NCBI RefSeq assembly: GCF_003044035.1
Contig: NZ_NVQC01000040.1
Location: 1 to 32,000 of the forward strand
DNA: 32,000 bases
Reading direction: 5' to 3'
Source: Candidatus Methylomirabilis limnetica
GTDB taxonomy: Bacteria; Methylomirabilota; Methylomirabilia; Methylomirabilales; Methylomirabilaceae
Positions 24,722-25,958 of this stretch are shown here, one piece after another (the first letter of the stretch is position 1; every line of letters begins with the position of its first letter). The position numbers and the translations under genes were made by a program. Under the pieces are notes generated by a model, which saw only the letters and a program-made list of their open reading frames with translations, had not been told where the DNA came from and did no database searches.

Positions 24722-25945
24722 ATGACGCTACAGGGGAAACAGATCGTGCTGGGCGTGACCGGGAGTATCGCCGCCTATAAGGCCGTAGAGCTTGTGCGGG
24801 CGCTCACCACGGCGGGGGCCGGTGTTCGGGTCGTCATGACCGCCTCGGCCCAGCGCTTTGTGACCCCCCTGACGTTTGCCACCCTCTCGCGGCAGGCGGT
24901 AATGACCGACCGTGTGACCCTGGAGGACGAGACGACGATGCCGCACATCGCCACGGCGCATGAGGCCGACCTGCTCCTGGTCGCGCCTGCCACCGCCAAT
25001 ACCATCGCCAAGTTCGCTCAGGGGCTGGCCGACGATCTACTGAGCACCCTCTTCCTGGCGTGGACGCGGCCGGTTGTGCTTGCGCCCGCCATGGACGCGG
25101 CCATGTACCGCCACCCCGCCGTTCAAGAGAATCTGGCGCGATTGCAGGGCTGGGGGGTGCGACTTGTGGGTCCGGCGACTGGTGAGCTGGCCTCGGGCGT
25201 GTGGGGTCCCGGCCGTCTGTCCGAGATCGGCGAGATCGTGCAGGCCGTGACCGAGACGCTCTGTCCCGTACGCGACCTGTGCGGCGAGGTGATCCTGATC
25301 ACCGCCGGCCCGACGCGTGAGCCGATCGATCCGGTACGCTACCTCAGTACCCGCGCCTCCGGCAAGATGGGGTACGCCCTGGCAGAGGAAGCGGTGGCGC
25401 GAGGCGCGCGTACCATCCTGGTCAGTGGCCCGACCCACGTGAGCCCGCCTACGGGGGTCGAACTCATCCAGATCGAGACCGCCCTGCAGATGCGCACGGC
25501 TGTGCTGGACCGATTGGCCGAGGCTACGGTGGTGATCAAAGCAGCCGCGGTCAGCGATTATCGTGTCGCGCAGCCGGCTGACGCCAAGCTCTCGAAAGGC
25601 GAGGCGCCCCTGACGCTGGAACTGGTGCCTACTCCGGACATCCTTAAAGAGATTGGTGCTCAGAAGGGCGCACGGATTGTCGTCGGCTTCGCGGCCGAGA
25701 CCGGCGAGGTTGTGCGGCGGGCTCACCATAAGCTGATGGCCAAGCAGCTCGACCTGATCGTGGCGAACGACGTGAGCCAGGCCGGGGCCGGGTTCGCGTG
25801 CGACACCAATCTGGTGATCCTACTCGATCCGGCAGGGGGGGCTGAAGAGCTCCCACTGCTTCCCAAACGGCAGGTGGCGCGTCACATCCTCGACCGCGTG
25901 GTGGGCCTCCGGCAGCAGAAAAACAGGGTAGAGGGTGGAGGGTAG
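24722..25945 (+). CDS. coaBC: Bifunctional phosphopantothenoylcysteine decarboxylase / phosphopantothenate-cysteine ligase CoaBC
   Basis: Flavoprotein motif [11 protein letters not shown] near the N-terminus from ATG 24722. C-terminal CoaB domain ([25 protein letters not shown]). The GTG 24695 extension lies in the repeat. Confidence 0.93.
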
Positions 25946-25958
25946 AGGGTGGAGCTGA
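25924..25958 (-). repeat. Composite heptamer element at the coaBC/udg junction
   Basis: Minus strand: CTCAGCT CCACCCT CTACCCT CCACCCT CTACCCT GTTTTT. The + strand carries GGG-N4-GGG-N4-GGG-N4-GGG (25926-25949), including the coaBC stop codon TAG. Confidence 0.65.

Follow-up and report, generated by a model that had tools for sequence, protein, structure and literature searches.

REP and REPIN elements are short, dispersed palindromes that are mobilised by RAYT transposases and occur as singlets or as inverted doublets that form hairpins. Most of them are located at gene junctions, and the copies in one genome evolve in concert. Other small bacterial repeats are built from heptamers. G-rich heptameric repeats have been described in Xanthomonas (GGGAATC) and in Nostoc PCC 7120 (GGGGAYT), where many copies form convergent inverted pairs and where they prefer four units and, on the sense strand, lie near stop codons (Rehm et al., 2015, PLoS One, PMC4692102). 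The sequence (GGGAATC)3GGG from Xanthomonas forms a K+-dependent quadruplex in vitro, with a T1/2 of 50.4 °C in 100 mM KCl (PMC4692102). The short tandemly repeated repetitive (STRR) heptamers of the cyanobacteria Calothrix and Nostoc comprise several tandem heptanucleotide units dispersed in one genome (PMC4692102, its reference 39). Rickettsia palindromic elements (RPEs), a kind of intragenic MITE (miniature inverted-repeat transposable element), are small palindromes that lie in frame in unrelated housekeeping genes and add a tolerated peptide (PMC10969869). Here, a set of ACCCT/AGGGT blocks in Candidatus Methylomirabilis limnetica, of the phylum NC10 (Methylomirabilota), is compared with these systems. 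The window is the whole stretch of 32,000 nt that was analysed (contig NZ_NVQC01000040.1, positions 1-32,000, forward strand). The blocks appear to be the arms of small palindromic repeat elements with a heptamer period, which form a family specific to the Candidatus Methylomirabilis lineage, and this reading is given a probability of about 0.6.

There are four AGGGT arrays in the window. Two are at gene junctions, where they overlap or abut a stop codon, and two are intragenic. At the coaBC/udg junction the + strand reads GGGTAGAGGGTGGAGGGTAGAGGG (25926-25949), that is, GGG-TAGA-GGG-TGGA-GGG-TAGA-GGG. The coaBC stop codon TAG (25943-25945; ORF, open reading frame, 24695..25945) is inside this block, which stops 10 nt upstream of the udg ATG at 25960. 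The udg Shine-Dalgarno sequence, GGAG, is at 25951-25954. The complete G-rich arm (25915..25954, + strand) has an A-rich head, CAGAAAAACA, followed by (AGGGTRG) x4.3, and Tandem Repeats Finder (TRF) reports 4.3 copies of period 7 at 25925-25954. It is a solo arm with no C-rich partner nearby. The block in queA, CCC-TATA-CCC-TAT-CCCC-TAGA-CCC (10149-10172), is C-rich on the + strand. It belongs to the right arm (10146..10183) of an insert. This arm reads AAAAGAACA followed by GGGTCTAGGGGATAGGGTATAGGGTAT on the - strand, is in frame and encodes SPYPIPYPLDPVLL. The block in slt, CCC-TGTA-CCC-TAT-CCCC-TCAA-CCC (23952-23975), is also C-rich on the + strand. Its arm (23946..23982) reads GGAAGAACA followed by GGGTTGAGGGGATAGGGTACAGGGTAC on the - strand, and is likewise in frame, encoding VPVPCTLSPQPCSS. 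The fourth array, (AGGGTGG) x2.4, is on the + strand at the junction of the slt stop and the coaBC start (24685..24701) and has only two G3 tracts. A preliminary description of this DNA had located the three blocks, the overlap with the coaBC stop, the 10-nt gap before the udg ATG and a partial copy with two G3 runs (24681-24708). All of these sequences and coordinates match the window.

The blocks were examined together with the other tandem arrays of the window and of related sequences. Arrays were counted by TRF and by a separate period-7 scan, and motif expectations were taken from 300 dinucleotide shuffles. The relatives were sampled as syntenic regions of ~21 kb each from about a dozen genomes, in all ~250 kb of Methylomirabilis sequence, in which many array counts are orthologous and not independent. 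The labels L083, L085, L087-L089 and L210-L216 denote loci of these related Methylomirabilis/NC10 sequences. The coaBC region was compared in Methylomirabilis oxyfera and six other NC10 assemblies, and the queA region in five assemblies (L210-L214). TRF identified the queA, slt and coaBC/udg blocks as period-7 arrays of 4.0-4.7 units (ATACCCT, CCTGTAC, and AGGGTAG). Nine further TRF arrays of period 7 are present in the window, with units that include AGGCTGA, CCTTCAG, CAGCGAT, TCAGCAG, AGCTGAA, TCAGGGG, and TCAGCCA. The separate scan found 14 period-7 arrays in the window against 0.6 expected, with no excess at periods 5 and 8. Most of the period-7 arrays in the window have no G-tracts (units such as AGGCTGA and TCAGNNN). 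Period-7 arrays have a density of 4.4 per 10 kb in the window, compared with ~0.3 per 10 kb in ~1.3 Mb sampled around queA in other phyla. In the Methylomirabilis loci run through TRF (~219 kb) there are 51 arrays of period 7, 11 of period 6 and 7 of period 8. The AGGGT blocks are thus one subfamily among many period-7 arrays.

Quadruplex potential was predicted with a regular expression (G3N1-7), with G4Hunter and with ViennaRNA using G-quadruplex energies. The regular expression finds four canonical motifs in the window. Three are the blocks at 25926-25949 (+), 23952-23975 (-) and 10149-10172 (-), which had been proposed as quadruplex candidates in the preliminary description and do have the required motif. 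A total of four motifs in the window is not above the shuffle expectation (mean 1.95; 42 of the 300 shuffles reach four). Four tracts at a regular spacing of 6-8 nt were observed three times against 0.14 expected, and none of the 300 shuffles reaches three. Since the spacing is enriched and the motif count is ordinary, the non-random feature is the period-7 array and not the density of quadruplex motifs.

These arrays could possibly be plain simple-sequence repeats. A slipping polymerase would then have expanded a heptamer seed at each site separately, and the arrays would neither be copies of an element nor spread between loci. Period 7 is the only over-represented period, many of the unit sequences are unrelated, and slippage of the polymerase has been given as the reason for the excess of heptamers in bacteria (PMC4692102, discussion). 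However, the arrays in the window are imperfect (73-86% matches by TRF) and would be a poor substrate for slippage. A phase-variable contingency repeat was also considered and was rejected. The imperfect arrays lie in housekeeping genes, and the length of the QueA insert is constant in all 11 members of a 90% cluster and in two further samples.

AGGGT arms with at least four tracts all have an A-rich head 5' of the array, approximately AARAACA followed by GGGT. All of the 13 arms have an A at position -1, 11 of them have a C at -2, and positions -8 to -3 are A or R. Examples of the head, in addition to CAGAAAAACA, are CGGAAGAACA, CAAAAGAACA, and TCAAAAGACA. The head and the GGGT that follows it are common to six of seven independent loci. 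The right arms of full elements end in ACCCTGCTTCT and ACCCTGCTTTT, and the motif CCCT[AG]TT[CT]TT occurs nine times in NC10 loci, each time at an array. Over 33 nt the arms of queA and slt share 91% identity, the odd CCCC third unit included. The udg-junction arm of L215 matches the window's queA arm at 29 of 34 positions, and the two loci are unrelated. Because the queA, slt and udg arms share the head and irregular units, they are best regarded as copies of one dispersed element, and the earlier claim of three independent copies does not stand. A conserved head that is not itself repeated, found beside arms at unrelated loci, is not accounted for by local slippage. Neither are the identical irregular third unit in queA and slt or the near identity of the L215 udg arm to the queA arm.

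The arms can also be found in pairs. Inverted arms are present in L210, L213, L215, and L216 (hairpin z -2.7 to -4.65), and full-element hairpins in the relatives have predicted energies of -37 to -53 kcal/mol. The AGGCTGA subfamily possesses its own head (CAGGTNNNT) and a total arm of 26-33 nt, and has no G3 tracts. This unit appears in a MITE-like palindromic element of 156 nt (897..1052), which has 35-nt terminal inverted repeats containing (AGGCTGA)n, with the head AGGTAGAT. It is predicted to fold as one long hairpin (-72 kcal/mol, z -8.3). A second MITE-like copy (19018..19177) is 94% identical to it over 113 nt. An arm-like fragment of the same element was seen in L087 at 20673-20705. 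Inverted pairs separated by loops, and heptamers that form the terminal inverted repeats of a 156-nt element, are also difficult to obtain by slippage at separate sites. Independent slippage is therefore considered quite unlikely as the origin of the arrays.

The queA site demonstrates how quickly these sequences change. Residues 170-199 of the window's QueA are an insertion (28 residues), and the Thermotoga maritima QueA structure 1VKY has two residues there. The left part of the insert contains (CAGCGAT)2.6 and then (TCAGCAG)2.9 on the + strand (10093..10125). These arrays have no G-tracts and stand where relatives have a G-rich AGGGT arm complementary to the right arm. Owing to its left arm, which is of the CAGCGAT/TCAGCAG type, the window insert has no significant hairpin fold (z -1.1). 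In L210 and L213 a G-rich arm (CAGGGTAGAGGGTATAGGGTAGAGGG) is followed by a loop and then by a C-rich arm complementary to it, and a long hairpin is predicted for each insert (-42 kcal/mol, z -4.65 in L210; -43 kcal/mol, z -4.38 in L213). L211 has a C-rich arm alone, with five tracts, and L214 has (CAGCGGT)4.4 followed by a C-arm of five tracts. Among 78 close QueA clusters, the peptide fits a four-tract C-arm in 35, fits it partially in 15 and does not fit in 28. The left arms in these clusters are of the AGGGT type in 29, of the CAGCGRT type in 18 and of another palindrome type in 6. The insert is hypervariable across 120 homologues. Selection at the protein level for a Pro-rich linker was considered and rejected. 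The ACCCT core is kept in all three codon phases and in non-coding copies, and the amino-acid variation maps to two loop bases.

At the slt site there are four C3 tracts in the window, L215, and L216, and three in L085 (ACCCT changed to ATCCT) and L088 (ACCCT changed to ACACT). Just upstream of the slt arm is a + strand array, (TCAGGGG/TCAGTGG) x3.1 (23916..23937), and L088 has (CAGCAGT)4.9 at this place. The slt/coaBC junction carries (AGGGTGG)2.4 in the window, (AGGCTGA)3-4 in L083, L085, and L088, and a full hairpin element in L216 (-52.7 kcal/mol, z -4.45). At the coaBC/udg junction five lineages have the canonical four-tract motif, each with its own loop bases: the window, L215, L216, M. 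oxyfera, and L088. L085 and L087 have three tracts there and intact genes. L215 possesses a full hairpin element between coaBC and udg (z -2.7). Its filled site has 71 nt more than the shorter udg site of L087, with no clear duplication. Identity between lineages is 54-67% in the array region and 84-90% in the flanking 300 nt.

The end of CoaBC varies as well. Three C-terminal tails, NRVEGGG*, NRV*, and KKQGLGDRV*, are found in one 90%-identity cluster. The tail after ...LRQQK is hypervariable across NC10 (P0121-P0270), and TGDRGQD*, RRTTDSRTG*, and KRGSRG* are added there to the three tails of the cluster. This variety suggests that different repeat arrays may have overwritten the 3' end of the gene in different lineages. 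At orthologous sites, arrays come and go, are exchanged for those of another subfamily and are overwritten at a much higher rate than the genes beside them change. L088 and L089, which encode identical CoaBC, were also compared with each other. Their contigs are identical downstream of the slt (CAGCAGT)n array and unrelated upstream of it (~position 9200). Upstream of this breakpoint L088 has a full slt, and L089 has a comEC-type gene and a truncated slt. The breakpoint coincides exactly with a heptamer array and reflects either a genuine rearrangement or a chimeric assembly.

The same comparisons can be used to ask whether selection acts on the four-tract design. In that view an RNA quadruplex at 25926-25949, extending over the coaBC stop and adjoining the udg Shine-Dalgarno sequence, would block independent initiation of udg, most of whose translation would depend on coupling to coaBC, and template-strand quadruplexes or i-motifs in queA and slt would pause polymerases. 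The three blocks have G4Hunter scores of 1.75-1.79, a scoring that the preliminary description had proposed. For the coaBC/udg junction, the minimum-energy fold from ViennaRNA includes an RNA quadruplex and is 2.4-11 kcal/mol more favourable than folds that lack one, and no conventional structure competes with it in the leader (z +1.05). A scan of 22000-27000 identified neither a promoter nor a terminator between slt, coaBC, and udg, so the junction array would be transcribed within the operon. Four tracts are kept at the udg junction in five of seven lineages and in all three tail variants of the closest strains. The (GGGAATC)3GGG quadruplex, with its T1/2 of 50.4 °C, offers a precedent, and quadruplexes at ribosome-binding sites alter expression in Escherichia coli, according to the authors of that study (PMC4692102). 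Thus, quadruplex formation by the blocks when single-stranded is plausible, as judged from the predictions and by analogy with Xanthomonas.

The number of tracts can be read in more than one way. The statement that every block keeps exactly four tracts holds for the three blocks in the window, and orthologues have three, five or six tracts or no array at all. AGGGT-type arrays with at least three tracts (~250 kb; ~6 loci, many of the arrays being orthologous) have four in 11 of 20, three in 7 of 20 and five or six in 2 of 20. TCAG arrays peak at three units (10 of 16). The AGGGT peak recalls the preference for four units published for GGGAATC repeats, the independence of the arrays here being weak. 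The preliminary description had held that frequent copies with fewer than four tracts would speak against a quadruplex. Four is the commonest number, and tracts are lost in L085, L087, and L088. TRF copy number does not differ significantly between arrays with and without G3 tracts (medians 4.3 and 3.2; Mann-Whitney p = 0.14), a comparison confounded by split arrays and orthology.

Several observations argue against selection for four tracts. Single mutations remove tracts at the udg junction (L085 and L087) and in slt (L085 and L088), and the genes are intact. An array compatible with four tracts is no longer encoded by 43 of the 78 close QueA clusters, and other lineages have arrays without G-tracts at the same sites. 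In full elements the G-arm is paired within a hairpin (-37 to -53 kcal/mol) that is far more stable than the predicted quadruplex and would out-compete it. The common head and irregular units show shared descent and not convergence on a structure. The constant unit number in coding copies would need no structural selection, because a change of one unit breaks the reading frame. In addition, no regulatory role was found for the repeats of Xanthomonas and Nostoc (PMC4692102). It is thus unlikely that the four-tract design is selected in this manner, and any quadruplex function of the blocks is probably incidental, although a quadruplex might possibly couple udg to coaBC translation. A related proposal also places the four-unit, quadruplex-competent design under selection. 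It would act either as an RNA quadruplex over the coaBC stop that gates udg initiation, and similarly at other operon junctions, or as a switch between quadruplex/i-motif and hairpin that is recognised by the machinery copying the element. This is decidedly unlikely. If either version were true, the family would consist of mobile repeats defined by their structure, with in-frame remodelling of essential proteins as a further effect.

The position of the junction arrays brings up translation. G-rich heptamers repeated at least three times give a stop in every frame and an AGG or GGAG every 7 nt, so they could serve as punctuation that closes the upstream ORF and re-starts the next, with the coding copies as neutral passengers. 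The coaBC stop and the udg GGAG are both within the array. In both subfamilies and in all lineages, a junction array finishes with AAGG or GGAG, located at the following start codon or no more than a few dozen nt from it, and the solo arms at three junction loci are all G-rich on the sense strand. Against this, M. oxyfera has a separate AGGAGG after the array, and the coding copies, the paired hairpins and the MITE arms are left unexplained. Punctuation as the reason for the arrays is considered very unlikely.

The family of palindromic repeat elements can accommodate these observations. A complete element would have an A-rich head (~AARAACA), about four AGGGTNN units, a loop of 10-40 nt and the reverse complement of the arm, and it would fold as a hairpin. 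The copies in the window would then be solo or half-decayed arms. One of these straddles the coaBC stop and supplies the Shine-Dalgarno sequence of udg, and two are in frame in what appear to be tolerant loops of QueA and Slt. Spread between family members would possibly be by copy-and-paste or by gene conversion, and replication slippage would shape the 7-nt periodicity. Only copies that preserve the reading frame would persist. The G-rich orientation would persist at gene ends, as its TAG, TGA or TAA triplets can there end the upstream ORF, within three units because 7 mod 3 = 1, and as a ribosome-binding site can be provided by its GGAG/AGG runs. Four G3 tracts would follow from the design of the arm, and a solo G-arm could fold as a moderately stable quadruplex when single-stranded. 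The quadruplex competence of solo G-arms is then most likely a by-product and not a selected function.

There are also points that weigh against the family of mobile palindromic elements. No transposase linked to the repeats, no target-site duplication and no other direct indication of movement were found in the loci sampled; the only transposase seen there, an ISL3-family gene in L212, has no tie to the repeats. Mobility is inferred from presence or absence at a site together with sequence sharing, and the present data do not discriminate between gene conversion, re-insertion and rapid local mutation. The peak of AGGGT arrays at four units, against three for TCAG arrays, is also compatible with selection for four G-tracts, the view taken by Rehm et al. 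The conservation of the four-tract motif at the udg junction in five of seven lineages, despite different loop bases, fits either homogenisation or selection. Finally, the array counts come from syntenic regions of ~21 kb in about a dozen genomes, and many are orthologous.

The distribution of the repeats was explored through the neighbouring genes and through metagenomes. The orthologous genes carry the Pfam domains Queuosine_synth, SLT, Flavoprotein and DFP, and UDG. Among the matches listed, the named QueA and CoaBC homologues are from Methylomirabilis or NC10, with the closest named at 78-85% identity. One of these homologues is carried by the 2.75-Mb M. oxyfera genome (FP565575). Rfam had no match anywhere in the window. 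In a metagenome-wide scan for ACCCTNTACCCTNNNCCCTNNACCCT, the listed matches were dominated by eukaryotic telomere-like (CCCTAAA)n contigs. About a dozen usable prokaryote-like contigs were among them, with arrays of 3.7-12 units that are often inverted pairs; this set was preselected for at least four units and says nothing on a four-tract preference.

Other heptamer arrays are also present in the window. The priA gene possesses a + strand array, (TCAGCSR) x5.6 (30690..30728), which is in frame in the N-terminal part, encodes FSDQPSAVRHQASE and has no G-tracts. An orthologous, shorter array is found in the priA of L085 (18255-18272). With the arrays in queA and slt, this makes three in-frame insertions in intact ORFs within 32 kb. 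The spacer between queA and tgt contains (AGCTGAA) x2.9 on the + strand (10765..10784).

Repeats of other types were noted as well. A C6/G6 palindrome, AAAATCCCCCCTAACCCCCCTTTTGAAAAGGGGGG, is found at 4100-4170 of the window and is 98.6% conserved in L210 (4669-4739). A related C6/G6 palindrome replaces the heptamer insert inside QueA in some relatives. This is the case in L212, where the palindrome at the queA site is unrelated to the heptamer insert, and the peptide is SPHPPFTKGGHGGIW. The C6/G6 palindromes point to a possible second small repeat family that also inserts in frame. A 9-nt repeat, CAATAGACG, is present five times at 22405-22448, at the 5' end of the slt ORF, and a related copy, CAATGGACGCAAAAGACGC, is at 9309-9327, at the start of the DUF2905 gene upstream of queA. 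A tandem duplication of 24 nt, GTCAAGATCAAGATCGCCAGAAT (x2, 78% match), is at 12201-12246, near the end of a yajC-like ORF.

The repeats extend the G-rich heptameric type, so far described in gamma-proteobacteria and cyanobacteria, to NC10, the phylum of nitrite-dependent methane oxidisers. Heptamer arrays are likely breakpoints in metagenome assembly and a likely source of variable protein tails and loops in NC10 annotation. As in Xanthomonas and Nostoc, a 7-nt unit with a G3-4 tract is dispersed over the genome and the heptamers are strongly over-represented (~250 kb sampled here). Inverted pairs able to form stem-loops are another common feature, found here in the relatives, with the window copies being solo or mismatched. 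Length and sequence vary widely between close relatives at one intergenic site, and some copies are intragenic. The G3N4 design is shared too, forming a quadruplex in vitro there and predicted to do so here. The repeats differ from those of Xanthomonas and Nostoc in belonging to NC10/Methylomirabilota, in the unit AGGGTNN and in the conserved A-rich head. They also differ in that G-tract arrays interchange with arrays lacking G-tracts at one site, and in that two of the four window copies are in frame inside conserved enzymes. The presence of G-tract and non-G-tract arms at the same sites offers a natural comparison for the question raised by Rehm et al., whether four units come from the quadruplex or from the architecture of the element.

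The in-frame insertions in QueA (28 residues relative to 1VKY), Slt, and PriA are similar to those of RPEs. Unlike the repeats here, which have arms of ~30 nt or hairpins of ~95 nt, RPEs are ~150 bp and are not built from heptamers. For the repeats here, neither a target-site duplication nor a link to a transposase was found in the loci sampled. REPINs differ in that no RAYT gene was seen in the sequence examined here and in that the present arms are internally 7-nt periodic. To our knowledge, frequent in-frame insertion into coding sequence is not typical of REPINs. Like STRR sequences, the arrays have several types of heptanucleotide unit, and they differ from them in phylum and in unit sequence. 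We know of no description of STRR sequences that includes hairpin pairing and a conserved head. What is new here is the NC10 phylum, the AGGGTNN unit with an A-rich head, the interchange with subfamilies that have no G-tracts, and the three in-frame insertions in 32 kb.

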